This document shows, one piece after another, positions 2,918 through 24,756 of a DNA stretch of 64,000 nucleotides (its first letter is position 1; every line of letters starts with the position of its first letter). The stretch comes from a virus. Lineage: Duplodnaviria > Caudoviricetes. Under the pieces are notes generated by a model, which saw only the letters and a list, made by a program, of their open reading frames with translations, searched no databases and was not told the DNA's origin. The stretch is taken from positions 622-64,621 of IMG/VR virus record IMGVR_UViG_2886218242_000014; one strand, given 5' to 3'. The position numbers were made by a program, and so were the translations under genes.

Positions 2918-3192
2918 AAAAACGAATGGTTGTTTTCCTGTCCAGTATTATCCTGCTGAGCGCCTGCAACAGTTCAACAATCTCCGAAGATGAGTATAAC
3001 TCTCTAGAGGAAGGGATGACGCTCTCAGAGGTTGCAGATCTCGTGGGCGGTAACGGAGAGCGTACCAGCTCTAATGGCTACACAGACGTAACCTACGATG
3101 GTGACGGTGAGGAAACTGGTGAGATTGACTTTGCAGTTATGGTATTCGAAAAGGGTAAACTAAGAGTATGGGACCGAGTAGATAATAACTAA
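2914..3192 (+). CDS. Small acidic lipoprotein
   Basis: MKKR + hydrophobic stretch + LSAC lipobox; EGMTLSEVADLVG resembles DUF3862/SmpA-like folds. Confidence 0.75.
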   Translation: MKKRMVVFLSSIILLSACNSSTISEDEYNSLEEGMTLSEVADLVGGNGERTSSNGYTDVTYDGDGEETGEIDFAVMVFEKGKLRVWDRVDNN

Positions 3193-3227
3193 GGGGAATA
3201 AACCAAAATCTCTAAGGCACTCCCCCT

Positions 3228-3260
3228 GAGCTGACTCTCATTGAGTCGGCTCTTTTTTTT
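3228..3260 (+). terminator. Intrinsic terminator
   Basis: GAGCTGACTC-TCATT-GAGTCGGCTC followed by a T run. Confidence 0.85.
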
Positions 3261-3447
3261 CTCATCGATATCATTACGGTAATTGAAATTATATTTTGTA
3301 TTCATGTGAATACCCTTATGAGACCACCTACTGAGGTTACACCCGATGTTACCTATATGTATTTTCTCTGTAAGTCTATATTCCCCACAGACACCTACCC
3401 CTATGGCCATAAAAATAGGTAGCCTCTCGGGATAGAAGCTACCTCAG

Positions 3448-3616: not shown

Positions 3617-3871
3617 TCACACTCCTACGGCCAGCTCATAGAGAACAACTATGGCAGCAAGCAATATAGCTCCTCCAAACCATACAGCACCAGCTAGCAG
3701 GAACATCCCACCATAGATATACAAGTAGGACTTAGCTACATCCCACTTGTTATCCGGAGGAAAGCCTAGCTTCTTGAGGCCACTATTGCTCTTCTTCTTA
3801 CGAGCCTGCTCTAATGCCTTCCTGTCCTCTTCCTCTAGCAGACTCTTAAACCTGTGTTCTAGTTTGACCAC
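3617..3871 (-). CDS. Small membrane protein
   Basis: Charged N-terminus, C-terminal hydrophobic helices; GAGGAAGTG RBS. Confidence 0.65.
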   Translation of the reverse strand: MVKLEHRFKSLLEEEDRKALEQARKKKSNSGLKKLGFPPDNKWDVAKSYLYIYGGMFLLAGAVWFGGAILLAAIVVLYELAVGV

Positions 3872-4003: not shown

Positions 4004-4249
4004 TTAATGACCTCCCTCTAGGATTACTAGTTCTTTGTTGGATTCAAAATACTTTCTTGATACCTTACGAGTACGAACGCTGTTGAGCGTTCCTCCTAGT
4101 GGCTCGATAGACTCCCTCACTAACCTCTCAGTGTTCCCTCTCAGTTGTACCGCTGCTAAGACTGGGTTACCCTCCATAGCCACACACTGTTGAGTTTCCA
4201 TGTGTTCGCCGTTCTCAATAAAGTTAACATTCACTTGGTAGTAATTCAC
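4004..4249 (-). CDS. Hypothetical protein downstream of satellite TMP
   Basis: GAGGTG RBS, coupled to upstream ORF. Confidence 0.7.
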   Translation of the reverse strand: MNYYQVNVNFIENGEHMETQQCVAMEGNPVLAAVQLRGNTERLVRESIEPLGGTLNSVRTRKVSRKYFESNKELVILEGGH

Positions 4250-4518
4250 CGTCTAACACCTCTTTTCTGTAGGTTAAGGTCTTGCTTCCCTTCTCTGGAG
4301 AGTGCGTGTCTTTTGTATTCAATCTCGCTTACTTCTCTAGGAGTAACACTAATGAGATCGCACTGAGTAATAACGAAAGCTTTCTCGTATGCTCGTTTGG
4401 TTGCCACCGAGTAGGCTTCCATCGTCTCGTTGATATCGTCCTCAGTTTGGAACATACGGCTATCTAGGAATCTCTCATTGTTTTGCTTGTAAGCTATGTC
4501 TATACAGAAATAATTCAT
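4246..4518 (-). CDS. Hypothetical protein downstream of satellite TMP
   Basis: AAGGAG RBS region; 90 aa. Confidence 0.7.
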   Translation of the reverse strand: MNYFCIDIAYKQNNERFLDSRMFQTEDDINETMEAYSVATKRAYEKAFVITQCDLISVTPREVSEIEYKRHALSREGKQDLNLQKRGVRR

Positions 4519-4560
4519 TGTCCATCTCTCCTTTTAATAACCAAGGAGACCGAAGTCTCC

Positions 4561-6885
4561 CTAGTATTTTCTAATTGATTGTTGTAAGCCACCATAGTCC
4601 ATTCTGCTTAAACCTTGCTCATAAGCTGTTCTTGTGACTCTCTGCTCTACAGTTGCTTTAAGTTGTTCTCCATTTACATCTACCTCGCCAGAAATACTAT
4701 GCTCGTGCTTATGAGTAACTGTGATAGCTGTCTTTCCTCCAGTGAATGCCTCTAAACCTGTACCCGCTAGAGCTACATTAGCCTCATTAGCAACCCCTTT
4801 GAAGGCACCTCCTACAGCACGTTCCATCGATCTCACTTGTGTTAATGCAGCTTCATACCACGTAGGGAAGAACGCTTCACCTGATTTGTCTAAGTCTGAT
4901 AGAGGCCCTTTCTTTGCTGGTGAGAACGGTAAGTAGGCACGAATGTTTTTCATACCTCTAGAGACAGCATCAGCAGCATCCCCAAATCCTTTCCAAATAC
5001 CATTTACGAACTCACTAAGTAACCCTTTACCTGAGTTGTAGAAGTCTCTGAAGTATCCAGTGAACTTGTTTACCATCTTTCTAATTCCGTCTCCTGTGGC
5101 GCTAACAGCATCGTTGAATCCATCTCTCACAGAGTTCTTTAATGCTCTTAGCATATCTGAGCCAGCTTCTCCAAAGTTACTTACCTTGTCTTTAGCAGCT
5201 TGAACCATATCGTTAAACTTCTGCTTAGTGTCATTCAGCATTCCTTGTAATTTATCTACTGTCTTACTCTTTAGTTCTTCGTATTTCTCGACAACACCGT
5301 TCTTCAAGTTAGTTACTTTCTGCTTAGCATCATTAACAATACTGTTCCACTTGTTAGCATTGTCTTGGAGGATACCTTGTATCTTATCGACTGCAGCTTG
5401 TTTCAGCTCCTCGTACTTCTCGACAACCTTATCTTTCATTTCCTGAGCTTTCTGTTTAGCATGGTCTACCGTGTCATTCCATTTCTGCTTAGTCTCATTC
5501 CACCACTGTTTAACAGCCGCAATCATCTGATCGTGAGCATCACCAATAGCCTTAGTCATTCCGTTCCAAGCATCCTTAACCTTGTCCCAAAGCTCCTGAG
5601 CATATTTCTTAACCTCATCCCAGTTTTGATATAGGAGAACGCCAATAGCGATTACTGCTGCAATGGCTGCTACTACCCAGAACCAAGGAGAAGCCAACAG
5701 CGTCATACTCAACCGACCTAGCAACTTGATAGCGTCAAGTATCCATGAACCAAACAATTTACCTATCTCGATTACCTTATTGATAGCCTTTCCTGTATCA
5801 TCAATCCATGTAGCTACACTAATAAGAATGCTGAATGTTTTGAAGCCTGCCCAGAGAGCTGCTACTAGAGGGATTAACCAATTAGCATTATCTACTACGA
5901 ACTGGATAGCATTGCTCACTAGACCTAAAGCAGTATCAAGAGCGCCTGACTCTCTAGCCCACTCCATGAATCTATTAGCTAACTCGAATACCTGTATAGA
6001 TACTGGTGCTAACGCTTGGATGATATCCCACAGAGTCAACACTAAGTTGCCTATGAATTGCATAATGACTGGCGTACTCGTCTTAACAAAGTTAACGAAG
6101 TCTTGGAAGGCTGTATTCGATTGTAATCCTGCTGCCCAGTTAGCGAACTTCTGAGTCAGATCTACCATGCCATTCCCTAAGTCCATACCTAGTGGAGTGA
6201 ATGCTATCATAATGTCGCTGAACCCCTTGAGGATATTACCAGCAGACTTCATTACCATTTCGAACATCGGAACCGCAAAAGTATTCATATGCTCGAAGAA
6301 CTTATCAGCTTTACCTTGAGTGATACCTTCGTTCATTTTGCCTATCATGTTGGAAAATGATTGTCCGACTCCTTGGAAAGAAGGGAACAATTTAGTCATT
6401 GTTAATCGGAGAAAATCTGTAGAGTTAGCTATGAGGTTTAACGTAGTAGGAGCCATTTGATTTTCCATCTCTCGCCAAGCATCACTGAGGTTGTTGATAG
6501 CTACTACAGCTTTCTTTTCCTCATCGGTGAGGCTCTCCATGATGGCTTGTATCAGAGCCATTTGTTTGGCATAACCTTTCGTGTCACCTGCTATCAGGGC
6601 TGCGTTAGCCTTGAGTTGAGCTTCCTCTAATTGGTTTGCCTTCTCCACAGTCTTCATTATTGTAGTAGTCGCTAAAGCACCAAACCCTGCAGCCGCTATA
6701 CCAGCAGTACCAAACAAGGAAGCAACTGCTCCGAGTCCACCTAACAGAGCTGGAGTCATTGCGCTTGCTGCTATCGTGATACCGCCTATGATGGCTGCCA
6801 TCTTCTTCGCTTCCGAAGAGGTTTGTCTGAATTGACCGCTAGCTCTATCTTGAGCTTGAATTATAATATCTATCACTGAGGCCAT
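4561..6885 (-). CDS. Tail tape measure protein, second (satellite) copy, 774 aa
   Basis: End-to-end similarity to 19553-21886 (ASVIDIII.AQDRAS... to ...GLQQSIRKY), Trp-periodic helical repeats. Confidence 0.92.
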   Translation of the reverse strand: MASVIDIIIQAQDRASGQFRQTSSEAKKMAAIIGGITIAASAMTPALLGGLGAVASLFGTAGIAAAGFGALATTTIMKTVEKANQLEEAQLKANAALIAGDTKGYAKQMALIQAIMESLTDEEKKAVVAINNLSDAWREMENQMAPTTLNLIANSTDFLRLTMTKLFPSFQGVGQSFSNMIGKMNEGITQGKADKFFEHMNTFAVPMFEMVMKSAGNILKGFSDIMIAFTPLGMDLGNGMVDLTQKFANWAAGLQSNTAFQDFVNFVKTSTPVIMQFIGNLVLTLWDIIQALAPVSIQVFELANRFMEWARESGALDTALGLVSNAIQFVVDNANWLIPLVAALWAGFKTFSILISVATWIDDTGKAINKVIEIGKLFGSWILDAIKLLGRLSMTLLASPWFWVVAAIAAVIAIGVLLYQNWDEVKKYAQELWDKVKDAWNGMTKAIGDAHDQMIAAVKQWWNETKQKWNDTVDHAKQKAQEMKDKVVEKYEELKQAAVDKIQGILQDNANKWNSIVNDAKQKVTNLKNGVVEKYEELKSKTVDKLQGMLNDTKQKFNDMVQAAKDKVSNFGEAGSDMLRALKNSVRDGFNDAVSATGDGIRKMVNKFTGYFRDFYNSGKGLLSEFVNGIWKGFGDAADAVSRGMKNIRAYLPFSPAKKGPLSDLDKSGEAFFPTWYEAALTQVRSMERAVGGAFKGVANEANVALAGTGLEAFTGGKTAITVTHKHEHSISGEVDVNGEQLKATVEQRVTRTAYEQGLSRMDYGGLQQSIRKY

Positions 6886-6969
6886 TTAGTAATCACATCC
6901 TTATGTTTATGAGAACGACAAATAAGCCCACCTGCAAAGTAGGCTAGTAAGATCCGTCCTCACTAGTTC

Positions 6970-7614
6970 TTATTTTTCCATCCCATCAAACAAGCTATTG
7001 AATAAATTTACGTTCGTAGAGTTAGATGAGTTCTCACGAGACTTCTTAAACTTACGAGACATACCTAAGTCGTCAAGTAACTTGATAGCCCTGTTCTCAA
7101 AGTCAACCATTGAGACCTTCTCATTGACTGCATAGCTCATCGACTTACCATTCTTTCTCCAACTCTTCAGTGTATTGATTAGAGCTAGGTCAAGTTTAGC
7201 AATGTCTAGGGGATCTAAGTCTTCGTAGTTATTCTTGTACCACTCCATAGTGTCGCTATACCAGTCCTTTTCCTCCTCGGTTAATGTCGCTAAGAAGTCT
7301 TTCTGATACAACCCATGTATTGGCTGTCTCCCTTTAGCTAAGTTTTCTTTCATTTTGTTTTTTCCCTCCTCTGTAGTTGCTCCTGTACTTTTACCTCCAT
7401 GGAAACAGCAACGCAGATTCTTCTCATTAGAAGGAATACGAGTACACACTTCTCCGCTACCCTTGATAGCTCCGCATATAGACGACTCCTTCTTGAGAAA
7501 CTCCTTAACGAGTGCCATCTCCTCAGAATCCTTTTTAAGATCTCCGTTAGCTAGACCTGATTTAATGTTGTCTATGTACTTTTGGAGATCCTTCCTTAAT
7601 TTCTTTTTAGCCAT
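6970..7614 (-). CDS. HGGxSTG-domain protein, putative terminase small subunit (satellite copy)
   Basis: ICGA...C...RCCFHGGKSTG; paralogous to 52684-53400, shared LFDGM tail. Confidence 0.7.
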   Translation of the reverse strand: MAKKKLRKDLQKYIDNIKSGLANGDLKKDSEEMALVKEFLKKESSICGAIKGSGEVCTRIPSNEKNLRCCFHGGKSTGATTEEGKNKMKENLAKGRQPIHGLYQKDFLATLTEEEKDWYSDTMEWYKNNYEDLDPLDIAKLDLALINTLKSWRKNGKSMSYAVNEKVSMVDFENRAIKLLDDLGMSRKFKKSRENSSNSTNVNLFNSLFDGMEK

Positions 7615-7615
7615 A

Positions 7616-7933
7616 TTATTTCTTCCTCTGGCCTAGACCTAGGCTAGCCATATACTTATCGTAATAAGCTCGGTCTTCCTTGCTCATCTCGATAGGCTTT
7701 TCTTTCTTGCCGATGCTGATTAGGTACTCATCGTATTCCTTTTTGAACTTAGCCTGTTCGTTAGCTTTCTTTTGTTCAGCAAATGCTTTCTTGTCTTCCT
7801 CAAGTTGTTTGTTCATTCGGTCAATCTTTTCGTTAAACTCTTTGAATCGTCTCTCTAATTTCATTTGTGCAACCTTCTGTTGTGCGTTCATATTGTTTCC
7901 TCCTCGCTTGTTTAATCTGTATGAGAAAGCCAC
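7616..7933 (-). CDS. Charged coiled-coil hypothetical protein (likely start ATG 7891)
   Basis: GAGGAGG RBS before MNAQQK; K/E-rich helix. Confidence 0.65.
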   Translation of the reverse strand: MAFSYRLNKRGGNNMNAQQKVAQMKLERRFKEFNEKIDRMNKQLEEDKKAFAEQKKANEQAKFKKEYDEYLISIGKKEKPIEMSKEDRAYYDKYMASLGLGQRKK

Positions 7934-17770: not shown

Positions 17771-17943
17771 TCTACGACAATGACACTCCAAAGAACTTTC
17801 TCTATCCGGCTTATGGTCTAGTGGAGAAAGGCTTCATTGTTGACGTGCTCGATAAGGAATTAATTTCTTCTCTCAAGGAGAAGGGATTCAAGAAAGCCCC
17901 GCCTTTCAAGGGGAAAGATGAGGAGGAGAAAATAGATGGCTAG
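17755..17943 (+). CDS. Small hypothetical virion-module protein
   Basis: Coupled between tail terminator and tail tube genes. Confidence 0.5.
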   Translation: MLVRLIYDNDTPKNFLYPAYGLVEKGFIVDVLDKELISSLKEKGFKKAPPFKGKDEEEKIDG

Positions 17944-18898
17944 ACAAACACAAGGTTACGATACATTGATTGCCTTCGGAAAGGAAGCTACTCAAGGTAC
18001 TGCTCCAGCAGCAGGAACATTTAAGAGCTGGGGAATTACTTCTGGCTGGGAGCCAAAAATCAACAAGAATCACGAACCTATTCGAGGAATCGGATCTCGT
18101 ACAGTTGTATCTCATAAGCCTTTAGGCCAGGAGGTTACAGCTACATGGAGTGGATACTTACAAGATCCACGCATCTTATGGTACGCACTAGGTGGGGCAG
18201 TTACTAAGACAGGAGCAGCTAACGCTTGGGTTCATACATTCTCCAACGTAGGGCGTTGCCAAGAGCTTCCTACCTTCTCGGTTAACACTAATATGTGTGT
18301 GAATGGTACTCCGTTTATTACTAACTATGTAGGTTCTAAGATCGATACTCTTACGATTAGTGGCTCTGCAGGTGAAGTCGTAGAGGTAGAAGCTGAGATC
18401 CAATCGTTAGACGCGGTTGATGGTGCCACAGCAGCTAGCTCATATGATTATCCAACTAACGAGATTATGACCTTTGCAGATGGAGACATTCTTGCCAATG
18501 GATCTGCTACACCGTCAGCTAGTGTTAAGGAGTTTGAACTCGAGATCAGTAATAACTTAGAGGCTTTATTTACAATCATGAAGCAATCTGGTAATGGCGG
18601 TGTCCCTAAGTATATTAATGAAGGTGTGGTGGATATCACCGGCTCTATTACGGTTGCTCTTATGGATACAACTACTCGTACGGCTTTTCGTAACGGAACA
18701 GAGTTCTCTATGAAGTTAACATTCACAGATCCAATCGTACCAGCGAACTACTTTGAGATTACTCTTGGTGGTGCTAAATATGATACAGACTCATTAGGTG
18801 TTGAAGCTGATGGAGAAACAGATTACGAGCTAGATGTACTGTTCCGTACTATCTCTGTGAAGATTGGCTCTAAAGACGTATCAGACTTAACAGTATAA
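17936..18898 (+). CDS. Major tail (tube) protein
   Basis: FGKEATQGTAP; VGSKIDTLTISG; FELEISNNLE. Confidence 0.85.
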   Translation: MARQTQGYDTLIAFGKEATQGTAPAAGTFKSWGITSGWEPKINKNHEPIRGIGSRTVVSHKPLGQEVTATWSGYLQDPRILWYALGGAVTKTGAANAWVHTFSNVGRCQELPTFSVNTNMCVNGTPFITNYVGSKIDTLTISGSAGEVVEVEAEIQSLDAVDGATAASSYDYPTNEIMTFADGDILANGSATPSASVKEFELEISNNLEALFTIMKQSGNGGVPKYINEGVVDITGSITVALMDTTTRTAFRNGTEFSMKLTFTDPIVPANYFEITLGGAKYDTDSLGVEADGETDYELDVLFRTISVKIGSKDVSDLTV

Positions 18899-18941: not shown

Positions 18942-19310
18942 GTGGAAACTATAATGACTAAGCAACAATTCCCATGGTTAAACAAACAGGAGACATTCAC
19001 AGAGAAGGTACAAGGAGTACGAGTTACTTATAAGAAGCCTTCCTTTGGAGCGCAACGCCGTATCCAAGGTGAAGTTACAAAGGTAGACTCTAAGAGTGGT
19101 AAAGTCGATATCGACGCTTCTCTAATGATGTTAGCTCTTACGGTTGAATCTATTGTGGATTGGGACTTTACAGATGAATCTGGTGAGAAGTTGCCTATCG
19201 AGATCCATACTTTCGATGAGGTATTTGACCCAGAGTTTGCCGCTGAGATCGTCAAGGTAGTTACTGACAAGGTAGCTGGAGATGTATCTGATAAGAAAAA
19301 AAAGAAATAG
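18942..19310 (+). CDS. Tail assembly chaperone (gpG-like)
   Basis: Between tube and TMP genes; SIVDWDFTDESGEKLPI; ends in a slippery A run. Confidence 0.8.
   Translation: METIMTKQQFPWLNKQETFTEKVQGVRVTYKKPSFGAQRRIQGEVTKVDSKSGKVDIDASLMMLALTVESIVDWDFTDESGEKLPIEIHTFDEVFDPEFAAEIVKVVTDKVAGDVSDKKKKK
19298..19304 (+). other. Programmed -1 frameshift site A-AAA-AAG giving a gpGT-like fusion
   Basis: Heptamer sits in the chaperone frame; the -1 frame is open from 19295 into ORF 19319-19549. Confidence 0.8.
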
Positions 19311-19318
19311 ATAGCCAA

Positions 19319-19549
19319 ATGAAGTCTCTAGTGGGAGGCAAGTCTGTCAAAGGAATCCTCCCAGAGATAGAGATGTACGAGCTTTGCACTTTGCTACATA
19401 AGACGCCTTCTGAGATTAAAGCTGAGTCGCATGAAGACATAGCAGCACTCTTGCTAGTTCATAACGCTAAAAACAAATATGAGTCGGAAGCTCAGAAGAA
19501 AGGCGACAAGAAGCAGGCTCGTAAGAATGTAGCTGATAAGTATCGCTAG
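19319..19549 (+). CDS. gpT-like chaperone extension
   Basis: In the -1 frame relative to 18942-19310. Confidence 0.7.
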   Translation: MKSLVGGKSVKGILPEIEMYELCTLLHKTPSEIKAESHEDIAALLLVHNAKNKYESEAQKKGDKKQARKNVADKYR

Positions 19550-19552
19550 GAG

Positions 19553-21886
19553 GTGAGAACTATCGCTTCAGTTATAGATATTATTATCGAGGCTCAGGAC
19601 AGAGCTAGTAACACTTTTAGGCAAACCTCAGCAGAAGCTAAGAAGATGGCAGCCATCATAGGCTTAATCACCATAGCAGCGGCCGGAATGACTCCAGCTC
19701 TATTAGGTGGTTTAGGAGCTGTTGCTTCATTGTTTGGTACTGCTGGGATAGCCGCCGCAGGCTTCGGGGCCTTAGCGTTCTCAACCTTTGTGAAGACCAC
19801 CGAGAAGGCGAATGACCTTGAGCAGGCACACCTCAAGGCGAATGCCGCCCTCATTGCAGGTGACACAAAGGGATATGCTAAGGCGATGGCTATGGTGCAG
19901 GCCATCATGGAGAGTATGACTGAAGAGGAACGTCAAGCAGTAGTTGCCATCAACAACCTCAAAGATGCTTGGAGAGAGATGGAAGACAAAATGACTCCGA
20001 CTAACTTGAGATTAATCGCTGAGACTACAGACTTTCTTCGCAATACTATGACGAGACTATTCCCTTCCTTCCAAGGAGTCGGTGAGTCCTTCGTAGGCAT
20101 GATGAAGTGGATGAACCAAGCCATCGAGCAAGGTAAAGCTGACAAGTTCTTCGAACACATGAACACCTTTGCAGTTCCGATGTTCGAGAAGGTAATGAAA
20201 TCAGCAGGTAACATCTTGAGTGGATTCGGCGGAATCATGGTGGCTTTTACTCCACTAGGTATGCAACTCGGAGATGGCATGGTAGACCTGACTAAGAAGT
20301 TTGCTGACTGGGCTTGGGGTTTACAAAGTAACCCTGCCTTCCAAGACTTCGTTAAACAAGTACAAGAGAGTACGCCTATCATAATGGACTTCATAGGTCA
20401 GATCGTTCTAACTCTATGGGATTTAGTCCAAGGGCTTTATCCTGTCTCGCTTCAAATCATCAAGATGACTACTGAGTTCCTAGAGTGGGCTCGAGAGTCA
20501 GGCGCACTAGATACTGTCTTAAAGCTAATCAACGATACAGTTAAGTTCTTCCTAGACAACTTGGATTTATTGGCTCCAGTTATTGCAGGTGTAACTGCTG
20601 GGGTAATAGCTGCTAATATTGCTTTTAAAGCTATGATGATTGTGAGTACGATTGCTAAAGGGATTGAGTTATTAACAACGGTACTAGGACTTTCTCGGGT
20701 AGCCACTGCTGCTGCGACTGTATCACAGTGGGGATTGAATGCTGCTATGATGGCTAATCCTATAGGTATTGTTATCGGACTCATCGTTGCGTTAATTGCT
20801 GTAGGCGTTCTCTTATATCAAAACTGGGATGAGATAACTAAGTGGTGTAAAGAGATGTGGGCTACACTAGAAGAATATTGGGATCTAGGAGTTACCATCG
20901 TTAAAGCGGCTTACCGTAAAATGGTCTTCGAGGCTAAAAAGTGGTGGGCTGAAACTCAAGAGTGGTGGGATAAAACTGTACAGGACGCTAAGGACAAAGC
21001 TGAAGAGATGAAACAAAAAGTTGTCCAAAAGTATGAGTGGTTAAAGCAAGAAGCTGTCAAGCAAGTGCTCCAGTTGTACTATGACACAAGAGATAAATGG
21101 AATCAAATGAAGCAAGACGCACAAGACAAAGTTGAAGAGATGAAACAAAAGGCTATACAGAAATATGAACAACTAAAGCAAGATGCCGTACAGAAGCTCT
21201 ATGAGATGGTTAGTGATGCTAAAGAGAAATGGGATAACATGGTTCAAGCTGCTGAGGATAAGGTAGAAAGTATGAAGAGGGCTGCCAAGAGGATGCTTGA
21301 TGGAGTCAAAGATTCTGTTAAGAATGGTTTTAATGATGCAGTTAATGACACAGCAGACGGTATCAGAAAGATGGTCAACAAATTTACTGGATATTTCCGT
21401 GATTTCTATAACTCCGGTAAGGGGTTACTTAGTGAGTTTACGAATGGCATCTGGAAAGGTTTTGGAGACGCTGCTGATGCTGTTGCTAGAGGAATGAAAA
21501 ATATCCGAGCTTACTTACCGTTCTCCCCTGCGAAGAAAGGCCCACTTAGCGACCTAGACAAATCAGGTGAAGCGTTCTTCCCTACTTGGTACAAGGCAGC
21601 GCTCACTAAAGTTTCAGCTATGGATCGTGCTATCGGAGGCGCCTTCTCTGGAGTTGCTGACACAGCGAGTGTAGCACTAGCGAGCACAGGCTTGGAAGCA
21701 TTCACTGGAGGCAGAACTAGCGTGACAGTCAACCACATAGTCAAAGTAGACGGCACTGTAGGTCTTGACTCTAAAGGAATCGAGGAGTTCGAGGATAGAG
21801 TGACTCAGCAGGTAATTAACACTTCGGGCGGTGGCTACGGAGGAATGGACTACTCAGGCTTACAACAATCAATTAGAAAATACTGA
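19553..21886 (+). CDS. Tail tape measure protein (probable real start ATC at 19562, giving 774 aa)
   Basis: Follows the chaperones; A/G-rich helical protein with Trp-periodic repeats. Confidence 0.95.
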   Translation: MRTIASVIDIIIEAQDRASNTFRQTSAEAKKMAAIIGLITIAAAGMTPALLGGLGAVASLFGTAGIAAAGFGALAFSTFVKTTEKANDLEQAHLKANAALIAGDTKGYAKAMAMVQAIMESMTEEERQAVVAINNLKDAWREMEDKMTPTNLRLIAETTDFLRNTMTRLFPSFQGVGESFVGMMKWMNQAIEQGKADKFFEHMNTFAVPMFEKVMKSAGNILSGFGGIMVAFTPLGMQLGDGMVDLTKKFADWAWGLQSNPAFQDFVKQVQESTPIIMDFIGQIVLTLWDLVQGLYPVSLQIIKMTTEFLEWARESGALDTVLKLINDTVKFFLDNLDLLAPVIAGVTAGVIAANIAFKAMMIVSTIAKGIELLTTVLGLSRVATAAATVSQWGLNAAMMANPIGIVIGLIVALIAVGVLLYQNWDEITKWCKEMWATLEEYWDLGVTIVKAAYRKMVFEAKKWWAETQEWWDKTVQDAKDKAEEMKQKVVQKYEWLKQEAVKQVLQLYYDTRDKWNQMKQDAQDKVEEMKQKAIQKYEQLKQDAVQKLYEMVSDAKEKWDNMVQAAEDKVESMKRAAKRMLDGVKDSVKNGFNDAVNDTADGIRKMVNKFTGYFRDFYNSGKGLLSEFTNGIWKGFGDAADAVARGMKNIRAYLPFSPAKKGPLSDLDKSGEAFFPTWYKAALTKVSAMDRAIGGAFSGVADTASVALASTGLEAFTGGRTSVTVNHIVKVDGTVGLDSKGIEEFEDRVTQQVINTSGGGYGGMDYSGLQQSIRKY

Positions 21887-21897
21887 GGAGGGGAACT

Positions 21898-22560
21898 ATG
21901 GCAGGAACACCAACGATAACAGGAATTACAATAAACTCAAGTGGCAATGCTGTGGTGACCTTCAGTTATGCTGGAGGCGCCTCCTCAGATATTGTCTACT
22001 TGGATAGAGCTAATAGTTACGACTCACCAGATAAAGCTAAAGTGGTTAGGAAACTCTCTAGAGGGACGCTAACTAATATGACAGACTTTACGATTCCCAA
22101 CTCTGGAGCACGCTATTGGTATCGCATGAGAGTGACTAATGCAGATGGATCTGGTATGACATATAGTCCTGATTGGTTCAGTGTAGATACCGAGTGCCTA
22201 GACATTGTCACAATAGCTCCGTACTCTGAACAGTGGACTCAGACAAAACTAAATGTTGTTCAGTCTAGGAGTGGCAAACGAGGAAGAGAGACTCAACTCA
22301 TGGAGTTTGCTGGTAGAAAAAGGCCTGCTGCAGAGGTGGGCATGATGAGAAGCCAAGAAGTAAACCTAACTTGGTGGGTTGAAACAACTCAGGAAGTTTA
22401 CGATATAGAAAGAGTCCTAATGGATAATGATTTCTGGTATAGAGATAACTACGGCAGAAGCTTCCACGGAGTATGCTCTGATGTATCTGTCTCGGATTAC
22501 ATTGGGGGGTACAACATGAGTGCGACACTAACAGAGATAGACGGTGAAGGTATTAACTAG
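21898..22560 (+). CDS. Distal tail protein-like with N-terminal Ig/Fn3-like domain
   Basis: Follows TMP; RYWYRMRVTN Fn3-like strand. Confidence 0.6.
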   Translation: MAGTPTITGITINSSGNAVVTFSYAGGASSDIVYLDRANSYDSPDKAKVVRKLSRGTLTNMTDFTIPNSGARYWYRMRVTNADGSGMTYSPDWFSVDTECLDIVTIAPYSEQWTQTKLNVVQSRSGKRGRETQLMEFAGRKRPAAEVGMMRSQEVNLTWWVETTQEVYDIERVLMDNDFWYRDNYGRSFHGVCSDVSVSDYIGGYNMSATLTEIDGEGIN

Positions 22561-22575
22561 AAAGGAGTTGTCACT

Positions 22576-24756
22576 ATGGTGTCACGAGCGAGGTTTAATG
22601 AAGGTACTAGGGAGATATCTTTTAGGTACGATATCCTAGATAAGAACAATGTCAAAAAGGGTGAAGCTAGCAATATCGCTGAGGGGAAGATATCCTTTAA
22701 TGCTGAAGCGAGTATCCATAGGACAGCTACTTTCAAGCTTAGAGAAGAAGCGCCACCTCCAGAGAATATAAACATCACAGCAGGTAATACTTATACGACT
22801 CTTAACTTCCCTGTTAGTGGGTGGTCAACAGATAACTGGATAGGAACCAGTACTGGGCAGTTGCTACCTCAGGGGGCGCCACTGTATAACGGATTGAACC
22901 CAGAGTTTACTGGTGAGATAAAAACTGTACCTCAGGGAACGATATGGGAAAACTGGAAAGTGTTTAAACCTAGTGCACTAACTGGTGTAACATACACAGC
23001 AGGCACTGGCAACGGAGCTTATGGTAACTCACAGACCATAAGTAAGACTAATACAACATATGGTCAAGCAGGGATCATCTCTGAGTTTAACACCTACACT
23101 GTCCAACGCCAAACGATATACTTTTGTTTCTGTTACAAACTAGAGATAGGTGGCGTTGTGTCATCTAATAAACCTTTCGTCTGGTGTGTACCTACAAACA
23201 AAGCTAACGAGGGTAATGATTGGTACCCAAACTATAGAGTGCATGATAGTCAAATAGCTACTAAGCCTCTCGGGAATAATTGGTACTTCTGTGAGGGTTA
23301 CTACGAAGTAGATATCTTAGGTACTACAGACCCATTTACTCTTTGGACAATCGCTGTAGGCTACGAGACGGCATCAACTTTTAAAATACAAGTTAGTAAC
23401 ATGTATATCCACAGTGTGATAAATAAGAGAATCAGCAACTCAGGTTCTACTATCTCTCAGGTATTTGATATCTCTTACAACAAGGTAGTCGATGGGTTTA
23501 ACCCTACTTTCCAGAAAGCAAGACTCTACTTCGATACAATCTACGCTAGATACAACCCCTCACAGGTTAACCGTCCGATAAATAATTTGTATTACCAAAC
23601 GAGTACGGATGGAGGTACTACCTGGTCAGCCTACACGTTAGCAGTCAACGGAGTTAACATATCGACCATCTCTGGAGGCACCAGCTCAGCTAATCTCAAG
23701 ATGAGGCTCAAGTGGGAGTTCGACAGGGTATCATTAGGAGACAAGACTCCGCGCTTCGTAGACCTTCGTATAGAGGTTAACTACAACGCCAAAGGAAAGA
23801 ACCCTCTGACAGACAGTATTGACTATCGAGTAGACCGGATTAGGCCCTACATGATTTACAAGGACGGTGCATCCACTGTAGAACGATCTCTAGGTATATT
23901 CCTCCTCAACTCACCTAAGAGGAAGGACAAAGGCTCTAGAGTCTACAGAGAGATAGAAGCCTATGATCAGTTGTCTATCTTGGCAGATGCTAAGGTGATA
24001 CATGCTTTCCAGACAACTTCTAATGGAGGAAAGAAAGTCACTGAGTTGATTACTGAGATCCTAACAGGAACAGACACAACAATACCTGTTAAGTTCGGAT
24101 ACAGCTTCCCTGCTGCGTTTGTCAATATAAGCAACAGCACTAACGTTTACCTAGATAGAACGCTAAACTTCAACGTAGGAGACACTTGGTTGAATGTCAT
24201 TAACGCCATGCTCATGTTTATCAACTATACGCCACTCTATGTAGACGGCAATGGAGTACTGAGAGCGGAACCTTACAAGGCCCCAGCAGACAGACCTACG
24301 AGCCACACGTATATCGACGATGAACTCTCGATTATCTACAAAGAAGCCGAGGAGGAGTTTGATATACATGATGTGCCTAACGTGTTTGTTGTAACACAAC
24401 AGGCTGACTCCGAAGGTGAACGAATGTACAGTAGGATATTTAATACCAATGAAGGCAGCCTATCGAGCACTGTCAATGTAGGTCGCTATATTGTTGACTA
24501 TAGAGAAGTAAGCCAAGTAGCTAACCAAGGCATACTCGATACGTACTGTGCGAGGATAGCTAACGAGGCTAGTCAGGCATACGGAAAGGTTATCTTTAGA
24601 ACCGCTCTTATGCCGTCTCACGAGTACATGAACAATATCCAATTGAGGTACCAAAACCTAAGAATAGATGATATCTACACAGAGACAGACTGGTCAATGG
24701 ACTTGAAAGTAGGAGGCCAAATGGAACACCGAGTGAGGAAGGTGGTTAGAATATGA
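22576..24756 (+). CDS. Tail hub/baseplate protein with a large internal insertion
   Basis: SIHRTATFKL...IDYRVDRIRPYM...LGIFLLNSP...EAYDQLSIL...FNVGDTWLNVINAML...DVPNVFVV. Confidence 0.7.
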   Translation: MVSRARFNEGTREISFRYDILDKNNVKKGEASNIAEGKISFNAEASIHRTATFKLREEAPPPENINITAGNTYTTLNFPVSGWSTDNWIGTSTGQLLPQGAPLYNGLNPEFTGEIKTVPQGTIWENWKVFKPSALTGVTYTAGTGNGAYGNSQTISKTNTTYGQAGIISEFNTYTVQRQTIYFCFCYKLEIGGVVSSNKPFVWCVPTNKANEGNDWYPNYRVHDSQIATKPLGNNWYFCEGYYEVDILGTTDPFTLWTIAVGYETASTFKIQVSNMYIHSVINKRISNSGSTISQVFDISYNKVVDGFNPTFQKARLYFDTIYARYNPSQVNRPINNLYYQTSTDGGTTWSAYTLAVNGVNISTISGGTSSANLKMRLKWEFDRVSLGDKTPRFVDLRIEVNYNAKGKNPLTDSIDYRVDRIRPYMIYKDGASTVERSLGIFLLNSPKRKDKGSRVYREIEAYDQLSILADAKVIHAFQTTSNGGKKVTELITEILTGTDTTIPVKFGYSFPAAFVNISNSTNVYLDRTLNFNVGDTWLNVINAMLMFINYTPLYVDGNGVLRAEPYKAPADRPTSHTYIDDELSIIYKEAEEEFDIHDVPNVFVVTQQADSEGERMYSRIFNTNEGSLSSTVNVGRYIVDYREVSQVANQGILDTYCARIANEASQAYGKVIFRTALMPSHEYMNNIQLRYQNLRIDDIYTETDWSMDLKVGGQMEHRVRKVVRI

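Follow-up and report, generated by a model that had tools for sequence, protein, structure and literature searches.

A second tape measure gene in a satellite-like chromosomal island of the Bacillus cereus group

Satellite-encoded tape measure proteins (TMPs) were first shown to work in 2025-2026, and to date only for the PLEs of Vibrio cholerae, in which TMP, chaperone, and baseplate hub replace those of ICP1 in chimeric tails; the hub is not present in all PLEs, and wider tail manipulation was suggested by the authors (PMC12987554). In PLE11, Rta blocks the ICP1 TMP, and escape mutations cluster in a stretch of 73 amino acids (aa) of that protein (PMC12987554). A TMP and a small terminase are also encoded by the EPIP satellites of Mycolicibacterium aichiense, which need tail proteins from a prophage helper (PMC12822802, preprint). 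Here we examine a stretch of 64,000 nucleotides (the window; positions 622 to 64,621 of IMG/VR record IMGVR_UViG_2886218242_000014) that contains part of a chromosomal island and a 52.2-kb phage, each with a TMP gene. The island gene, which we call TMP-2, is an intact, selected hallmark gene of an integrase-bearing island in many chromosomes of the Bacillus cereus group. We lean, by a small margin over even chances, toward the view that this island is a satellite of ~52-kb siphoviruses resembling Bacillus phage 1_ICo-2020 and that, like the PLEs with ICP1, it replaces the helper TMP with its own in tails that the helper builds.

Like the PLEs (TMP/TAC/BhuB), the Bacillus island is chromosomal, bears an integrase, lacks its own tail tube, and encodes its own TMP along with other, putative packaging and regulatory paralogues of the presumed helper. 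A hub or tip protein likewise occurs in some members only: BhuB in PLEs and a Tal-like protein in Bacillus island locus L008 and, judged by position, L015 and L017 (such handles designate the loci used for comparison). The element families are unrelated. The Bacillus host is Gram-positive and its presumed helper is a plasmid-like temperate phage with a noncontractile tail, whereas the PLE helper is a lytic myovirus. TMP identity to the helper is ~20% in PLEs and 62% in Bacillus; the PLE11 TMP is 95 aa off the length of its helper's and the tails are 10 nm shorter, whereas the Bacillus pair is equal in length. The Bacillus island also has no detected chaperone and no Rta homologue, and incorporation of the TMP into virions, demonstrated for PLEs, is inferred here. 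The principle is the same as in PLEs, with a different element family, host, and tail type and with a TMP that is unusually close to the helper's and of the same length.

The EPIPs are similar as Gram-positive-type satellites with a TMP and a small terminase, for which the Bacillus island has a TerS-like candidate. They differ in having a serine integrase, capsid and scaffold genes, and head-tail adaptor genes, in lacking antirepressors, and in having tails longer and more variable than those of the helper, whereas in the Bacillus island head genes are absent, regulators of the Rha/ANT type are present, and the TMP is as long as the helper's. SaPI-type PICIs resemble the island in size (about one-third of the helper) and layout, with an integrase, divergent regulators, a replication initiator, and then an operon with a TerS-like paralogue of a helper gene. 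Classical PICIs, however, use helper tails unchanged and encode capsid-size and packaging factors rather than tail-core proteins, and no Stl/Str, Pri-Rep, or Cpm homologues were identified in the Bacillus island. Full-length homologues of TMP-2 are found in 1_ICo-2020 (MT700412), Anath, S4-2, and ~51-kb stand-alone B. cereus-group contigs; TMP-2 is 47% identical to the 1_ICo-2020 protein and 58-64% identical to those of the 51-kb contig clade, with a common domain order and a common SPAKKGPLSDLDKSGEAFFPTWY block. The 1_ICo-2020-type TMPs sit in complete tail modules of RepA-type phages, whereas TMP-2 stands alone in an island and belongs to a separate clade. In full-text literature searches, we found no account of a satellite or PICI with a TMP gene in the B. 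cereus group.

The two tape measure genes of the window and the TMP-2 leader are as follows.
4561-6885, (-) strand: TMP-2, the island tape measure gene, an open reading frame (ORF) of 2325 nt with a 774-aa translation from an ATG start.
6886-6945, (-) strand: TMP-2 leader, with a sequence GGATGTGA that resembles a Shine-Dalgarno (SD) sequence and, from a scan for terminator-like structures, a T-run stem-loop (6945-6925) between the gene of a 214-aa protein and TMP-2.
19562-21886, (+) strand: TMP of the phage (the putative helper), 774 codons from ATC and 777 from GTG 19553.

TMP-2 matches phrog_58 (E 6.5e-33) and more than 15 further TMP PHROGs. Kyte-Doolittle analysis places its hydrophobic segments at aa 29-72, 337-358, and 392-422, in the same places as in the phage TMP, and its helical aa 424-592 give sub-threshold Apolipoprotein-type Pfam matches. 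Unlike usual TMP genes, TMP-2 in the window's island does not lie between tail assembly chaperones and Dit/Tal; its upstream neighbors are HGGxSTG/TerS-like and coiled-coil genes, and downstream are two proteins of 80-90 aa. A self-BLAST of the contig limits the DNA-level duplication to the TMP gene and its ribosome-binding site (~4557-6901 versus 21890-19548, 74% nucleotide identity); beyond this, it showed an exact repeat of 54 bp and some short matches with low scores. The leader is kept in other islands, and its homology with the phage copy extends to ~6901. One exact stretch of ~31-36 bp common to both genes (window 4856-4891) breaks k = 31 assemblies of the source run within TMP-2, and Logan contig L006 ends there.

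A sequence-only reading of the window had described a second TMP of 2325 nt, equal to the phage gene when the latter is counted from an ATC, and this count holds: from ATC 19562, the phage gene likewise comprises 2325 nt or 774 codons. The ORF listing gives the phage gene as 19553-21886(+), 777 aa with a GTG start. That GTG falls within the SD sequence AGGAGGTG, whereas ATC 19562 is the counterpart of the island ATG and sits 5-6 nt past the SD sequence. ATC occurs at the homologous start in five of eight further phage-type loci (six of nine with the window), and ATA takes its place in 6 of the 14 island loci; because these codons recur at that site in other loci, the comparison of 774 with 774 codons is sound at homologous positions. 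ATC and GTG are candidate starts for the phage TMP, and on sequence grounds the uncertainty in its length is 0-3 aa. Non-ATG first codons are found across the family (L003, L008, L012, L014-L016, L019-L021, L023, and L026; window 19547-19564), each 5 nt past a GGAGGTGA-like SD sequence, and such a weak start codon may hold TMP dosage low. Database versions of the same genes begin at three places and give 777 aa (GTG within the SD sequence), 774 aa, or 746 aa (Met29).

The two proteins are 62% identical across their full length (BLASTP), and the 10 + 10 gap columns are confined to aa ~347-400 and ~740-760, where the sequences can scarcely be aligned. The internal indels noted earlier may therefore be alignment artifacts of equal-length diverged segments. 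In a C-terminal block (aa 604-677), 2 of 74 residues differ, compared with 38 of 222 nucleotides, 31 of them at third positions, as expected from the earlier description of a block nearly identical as protein with many synonymous changes; the N-terminal 75 aa show 10 amino acid and 49 nucleotide differences. Nei-Gojobori estimates, made overall and by window, give pN 0.24, pS 0.67, and dN/dS 0.17 for the whole gene, with dS saturated at ~1.7. By window, dN/dS is 0.05-0.2 at aa 1-300, 0.03 at aa 592-666 (pS 0.66), and 0.65-0.7 at aa 347-416, where the alignment is poor. Among island copies, dN/dS is 0.11 (versus L002) and 0.20 (versus L003). The proposal that the gene is old and under purifying selection is thus borne out by a codon analysis in which the overall ratio is far from 1. 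Relative to L003, aa 150-450 are identical as protein (dN = 0) despite a dS of 0.06-0.27, whereas aa 500-625 are only 42-54% identical, a pattern that, from these sequences, is a mosaic. By its sequence, TMP-2 is a real, intact TMP that parted long ago from the phage TMP.

Divergence between the two proteins is broader than the central part (aa 310-400) to which it had been assigned. Identity is lowest at aa 326-416 (26-34%), and it is 38-50% at aa 417-590 and 33% at aa 717-765. A per-column comparison within and between clades shows that two stretches are conserved within each clade and different between them, namely aa ~326-400 and aa ~726-750. The former overlaps and spans between the hydrophobic stretches at 337-358 and 392-422. 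In the coiled-coil part (aa 426-650), variability within clades is about as large as between them. What survives of the earlier description is that the ends are conserved and that a central, hydrophobic-flanked segment is clade-specific; the restriction to aa 310-400 does not, as aa 426-650 are hypervariable in both clades and aa ~717-765 form a second clade-specific stretch.

To place TMP-2 among its relatives, we built a tree of 117 TMPs. Homologue searches gave 164 matches at E <= 1e-10, the closest 120 of which were listed; nearly all source-named entries among these 120 belong to the B. cereus group, and the matches listed include no Vibrio proteins. An island clade of 72 sequences (support 100) takes in all sequences of the 771-774-aa group from contigs larger than 100 kb except one, P0088, and has none from a 48-56 kb contig. 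P0088 branches outside the island and phage clades, yet it sits in an island (L009). The sister phage clade of 30 sequences (support 93) includes all 18 sequences of the group on 48-56 kb contigs, which are stand-alone phage-sized replicons, together with the phage TMP of the window, and has none from a contig larger than 100 kb. TMPs of 722-748 aa, of the 1_ICo-2020 type, form the outgroup. The island/phage split recurs in trees of the N-terminal, middle, and C-terminal segments (1, 2, and 1 label changes, respectively). With starts normalized, 774 codons are found in 47 of 69 island sequences and 28 of 31 phage sequences; the rest have 771-773, with one exception of 727. A length of 774 is therefore ancestral to both clades, so that the equal length was inherited rather than matched to the co-resident phage, contrary to what the sequence-only reading had proposed. 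In 12 of the 14 island loci with DNA, the TMP frame of 771-774 codons is open.

The island itself is recognizable from its chromosomal setting. The 64.6-kb record runs from the start codon (ATG) of a tyrosine integrase gene to a copy of the 54-bp repeat and is the right-hand part of an 85,075-bp whole-genome shotgun contig (NCBI SEIR01000010.1), the left 20 kb of which are ordinary chromosome (FTHFS, a methyltransferase, and Spore_YtfJ). L002 and L003 have the region from the integrase to ~11706 at the same chromosomal site, with 90-93% nucleotide identity. A TMP identical to TMP-2 is encoded on an independent 4.1-Mb contig (L004), and proteins 86-99% identical to it occur in many further chromosomal contigs; L007-L017 are more diverged islands. 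The island gene order stands beside Spore_YtfJ/FTHFS in L002-L005, L007, and L008, and the same order is found in L009-L017, for which the sequence examined stops short of that flank. B. thuringiensis, B. cereus, B. toyonensis, and B. wiedmannii are among the species that share this architecture. These data place the gene in a satellite-like integrative element, in line with the earlier reading of it as a satellite gene.

One island strand carries the integrase, an HTH_36 initiator-like gene, and small ORFs, and the opposite strand carries a helix-turn-helix (HTH) gene followed by genes for a 190-aa protein, Rha/ANT, 226-aa, 91-aa, and 214-aa proteins, and the TMP. On the 3' side of the TMP are the small proteins i90 and i81 (about half of the loci), a 719-730-aa and a ~96-aa protein (some loci), and an 84-aa membrane-type protein. 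Gene and Pfam maps of the window's island ORFs and of ~15 other loci show no capsid, portal, TerL, tail tube, or lysis genes and no virion genes beyond the TMP with or without Tal. In L008, a 43-bp direct repeat bounds 19.3 kb, and L002 and L003 suggest 16-17.5 kb; L002 and L003 share only a 14-mer as an att-like repeat, and L007 has none. With a direct repeat clear only in L008, the island borders are approximate (roughly 16-19 kb), and the island is about one-third the size of the phage. The island genes of the window besides TMP-2 are as follows.
1-297, (+) strand: 3' part of the integrase gene, whose ATG is base 1 of the contig, 621 nt before the window.
435-1187, (+) strand: HTH_36 replication-initiator-like gene, 250 aa, which matches replication-initiator PHROGs.
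3617-3871, (-) strand: the gene that closes the leftward operon, for an 84-aa protein whose C-terminus is hydrophobic; a homologue follows a Tal-p96 pair in L008.
4004-4249, (-) strand: i81, an 81-aa structural paralogue of i90; the gene start overlaps the end of the i90 gene, and the predicted model (pLDDT 93.1) has the same topology as that of i90.
4246-4518, (-) strand: i90, a 90-aa protein directly 3' of TMP-2, conserved in nine island loci.
6970-7614, (-) strand: 214-aa HGGxSTG-domain protein, candidate small terminase, which matches NF041373 above cutoff and phrog_6177 (function unknown).
7616-8761, (-) strand: 105-aa (91 aa elsewhere) and 226-aa coiled-coil proteins, upstream of the 214-aa gene and present in all island loci.
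8839-9555, (-) strand: Rha/ANT, regulatory, leftward operon.
9606-10178, (-) strand: HTH_36-like protein of 190 aa, regulatory or replication-like, leftward operon.
10178-10420, (-) strand: 80-aa gene, leftward operon.
10622-10831, (-) strand: HTH gene, leftward operon.

The island integrase is a 305-aa tyrosine-type enzyme, and Pfam Phage_integrase is found in L002-L008. The predicted model of i90 (pLDDT 87.5) shows a beta-beta-alpha-beta topology. Foldseek searches of PDB and BFVD returned no structural relatives of i90 or i81 at E <= 0.001, and in a VIA-wide comparison, the best Z was 6.1 (a PurS-like alpha/beta plait), within the noise range. Pfam gave nothing for the 214-, 105-, 226-, 90-, 81-, and 84-aa island proteins; for the 226-aa protein, there are only Atlas leads, to GP20-like and Psu-like clusters. 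The leftward operon has terminator-like hairpins at three places: in its leader, in the gap that separates the 214-aa gene from TMP-2, and at its end behind the 84-aa gene (3444-3417(-)). A 73-aa ORF, 3189-3410(-), lies between the convergent hairpins that end both island operons (3228-3252 on the (+) strand and 3444-3417 on the (-) strand) and is probably not a gene. The variable arms of some islands hold defense- or conflict-type cargo, including an OLD-type AAA/TOPRIM nuclease (L016:1991-3850), a Ser/Thr kinase (L007:3323-4444), and a SUKH/SMI1 immunity-type protein (L009:19751-20191).

The phage occupies window 11761-63946, which with one repeat copy makes 52.2 kb, and is colinear with Bacillus phage 1_ICo-2020 (51 kb, ~78% nucleotide identity; RepA, no integrase). 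Phages of this type appear to live as plasmid-like replicons, with RepA and without an integrase. A record labeled "Pectobacterium phage PcaP2EGY" (OR599646) matches the window at the same places and with nearly the same scores as 1_ICo-2020 (L001, MT700412) and probably represents that same Bacillus phage, with a host name that is doubtful. The tail module and the join with the island include the following.
11707-12159: 453-bp segment identical in island and phage, the first 54 bp of which recur at 63947-64000, the contig end (self-BLAST, translations, and unitigs).
17936-18898: phage tail tube gene.
18942-19549: phage tail chaperones of 122 and 76 aa.
21898-22560: phage gene in the Dit position.
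22576-24756, (+) strand: phage tail protein of 726 aa, followed by p95 to 25040.

Adjacency of island and phage results from the 453-bp identical repeat. This segment is the ORF6N-type N-terminal part of paralogous antirepressors, which continue as KilAC in the phage and as Bro-N in the island. In the source run, unitig depths are 25-34 for chromosome and island and 104 for the phage contig; the unbranched segment 11707-12159 has a depth of 83, and a second exit from 12160 has a depth of 15. The unitig that spans TMP-2 through the island operon has a chromosome-like depth. At 3-4 times the chromosomal depth, the phage is for the most part a multi-copy replicon of its own. The contig stops after 54 bp of the second repeat copy, which presumably reflects k-1 for k = 55. 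A cointegrate in part of the population could fit the low depth (15) of the island exit. Every other locus examined shows the island passing into a left arm of its own and not into a phage, and a megablast search of the phage collection found no phage record carrying the island. We also considered an element integrated in the phage genome with the 54-bp repeats as att sites; contig origin and unitig data rule this out.

At the join, the island ORF6N + Bro-N gene (11321-12204(-)) is split by a one-nucleotide frame difference at 11706/11707, where identity with the phage stops. The out-of-frame fusion is real in the island's unitig, and L003 has an intact 256-aa form. From the sequence, gene conversion by the phage copy seems to have disrupted the antirepressor gene.

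Beyond the TMP, several features connect the island with the phage. The 214-aa island protein and the product of phage gene 52684-53400 are 34% identical over 209 aa (E 1e-26), and both have the HGGxSTG domain and match phrog_6177. In L008, the TMP is followed by i90- and i81-like genes and then by genes for 730-aa and 96-aa proteins (L008:12887-15620). Along its whole length, the 730-aa protein has 42% identity with the phage tail protein (22576-24756), and the 96-aa protein is 28% identical to phage p95 (E 1e-13; p95 was compared in L008 only). L015:15832-18210 and L017:15833-18210 have a 719-730-aa gene that, by size and position, stands in the same place as the L008 tail-protein homologue, and a partial next gene in L015 resembles the L008 96-aa gene. 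The window's island is without homologues of the tail protein (Tal-like) and p95. A 22-nt motif also recurs at the heads of two operons.
11087-11184, (-) strand: the 22-nt motif ACTATATATATGAAGCAATTAA, present twice where the island leftward operon begins.
13566-13587, (+) strand: the motif in the phage, 4 nt upstream of the first ORF of the structural operon (prohead protease).

These are the only three matches to the motif in 64 kb, with none expected by chance, and all three are operon-head copies. A sigma factor is encoded by the phage (40118-40807) and may read the motif. Common to island and phage are only the TMP, the HGGxSTG/TerS-like protein, the Tal-/p95-like proteins (some islands), the antirepressor N-terminal module, and the operon-head motif.

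The working model, which is the most economical one and which we put slightly ahead of even, is analogous to that of the PLEs and would run as follows. The late phase of the helper would turn on the island leftward operon via the shared promoter-like motif. The N-terminal 300 aa of TMP-2 and the block at aa 590-715 would engage the chaperone, tube, and hub proteins of the helper, and TMP-2 would replace the helper TMP in helper-made tails (in some islands together with the island Tal), leaving tail length unchanged because the length of the protein is conserved. Tube, chaperones, Dit, and fibers would come from the helper, and the TMP, with Tal and p95 in some variants, would come from the island. 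The clade-specific segments at aa ~326-400 and ~717-765 would distinguish the satellite TMP from that of the helper; they might ensure that the satellite TMP is incorporated selectively, make it resistant to an inhibitor of the helper TMP that the island encodes, or open helper-excluding cells to entry. A drop-in TMP, as the sequence-only reading had proposed, has experimental precedent in PLE satellites (PMC12987554), and its application to the Bacillus island is by analogy. In one variant, which we regard as rather unlikely, the island would follow an Rta-like scheme: i90/i81 or another island product would block the helper TMP or helper-type entry via the segment around aa 326-400, and TMP-2 would be immune, so that only satellite particles would have working tails or be able to inject into helper-carrying, helper-excluding cells. 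Were this so, the Tal-carrying islands would re-specify the whole tail tip.

Several observations weigh against the proposal of a satellite with a substituted TMP. TMP-2 is no closer to the co-resident phage TMP (62%) than to those of other phages of the clade (58-64%). BLASTP with the phage 122- and 76-aa chaperones and PHROG comparison detected no tail assembly chaperone in the island, unlike in PLEs, and a divergent one is possible. The TMP is frameshifted in 2 of 14 loci, L012:13306-15177 (near aa 715) and L014:12932-15266 (near aa 580), where either decay or sequencing error could be responsible. The small-terminase assignment of the 214-aa protein is weak, with phrog_9231 at 1e-6 and a Terminase_4 Atlas cluster lead of 0.76. 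A conserved length alone does not prove tail measuring. The assignment of the helper comes from homology and from co-residence in one strain, and expression, excision, packaging, and virion incorporation are all steps that we infer from sequence; the RNA-library contigs with the island may be DNA carry-over. Runs X16 and X17, labeled as RNA-seq, give contigs 90-95% like the island including TMP-2, and we rejected them as evidence of transcription; they also contain contigs of up to 53 kb, and DNA is possibly present.

The same genes could instead serve interference alone, with TMP-2 acting as a dominant-negative decoy that binds the chaperone and hub proteins of 1_ICo-like phages, whether these infect or are induced, and ruins the assembly of their tails; the island would then be a defense island that protects the population, and the decoy would not serve its transfer. 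The conserved ends are likely contact surfaces, and the clade-specific middle differs, as a decoy would allow; tail assembly is a known target of defense, as in the Tai systems (PMC11364771), Rta of PLE11, and Avs18, which senses TMPs (PMC13581612); and the left arm of the island holds defense-like cargo in some genomes, such as the OLD-type nuclease in L016. Contact surfaces would suffice for a decoy, yet 771-774 codons are held across a clade with saturated synonymous divergence, and the hydrophobic segments keep their positions. The integrase, the replication-initiator-like gene, the TerS-like paralogue, and the operon-head motif make up the toolkit of a mobilized satellite, and the Tal-/p95-like genes of some islands suggest building of a tail tip rather than blocking. 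We rate a pure decoy as improbable, marginally more so than the Rta-like variant; interference and use coexist in PLEs, so that it partly overlaps the satellite proposal.

A lone tail gene outside a tail module and the two frameshifted copies among 14 could also be read as traces of a domesticated or leftover prophage fragment, in which TMP-2 would have no present virion role or would have taken on a cellular one. Decay of this kind sits poorly with a dN/dS of 0.11-0.20 among island copies, with dN = 0 at aa 150-450 versus L003, with the same architecture across several B. cereus-group species, and with the 111 blocks of the collection in which the island HTH protein alone is indexed. Nor is the island simply the integrated form of the related phages, since these have RepA but lack an integrase. 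We give this explanation a small chance. Smallest of all, and close to negligible, is that of an assembly artifact in which the second TMP came from a second related phage that was misjoined or co-assembled. A repeat-induced join is indeed present, and the phage depth of 104 contrasts with 25-34 for the island, but TMP-2 and the island flanks are 100% identical on the 4.1-Mb contig L004, many other chromosomal contigs encode proteins 86-99% identical to TMP-2, and the unitig depth is chromosome-like. Artifact concerns only the adjacency of island and phage and is refuted for the TMP-2 gene itself.

For annotation, these results matter in two ways. TMP genes of this family are now labeled "hypothetical" or "apolipoprotein A1/A4/E family" with three different start calls, and prophage finders fuse the island with a separate phage replicon. 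The pair of TMPs is close (62%), equal in length, and sharply localized in its differences, which makes domain swaps and structure-function tests straightforward; regions of the TMP that contact chaperone and hub could be tested against a membrane- or defense-facing middle. If the island is indeed a satellite that places its own TMP in helper-built tails, it would extend the principle of satellite-encoded tape measures to Gram-positive hosts and to noncontractile tails.

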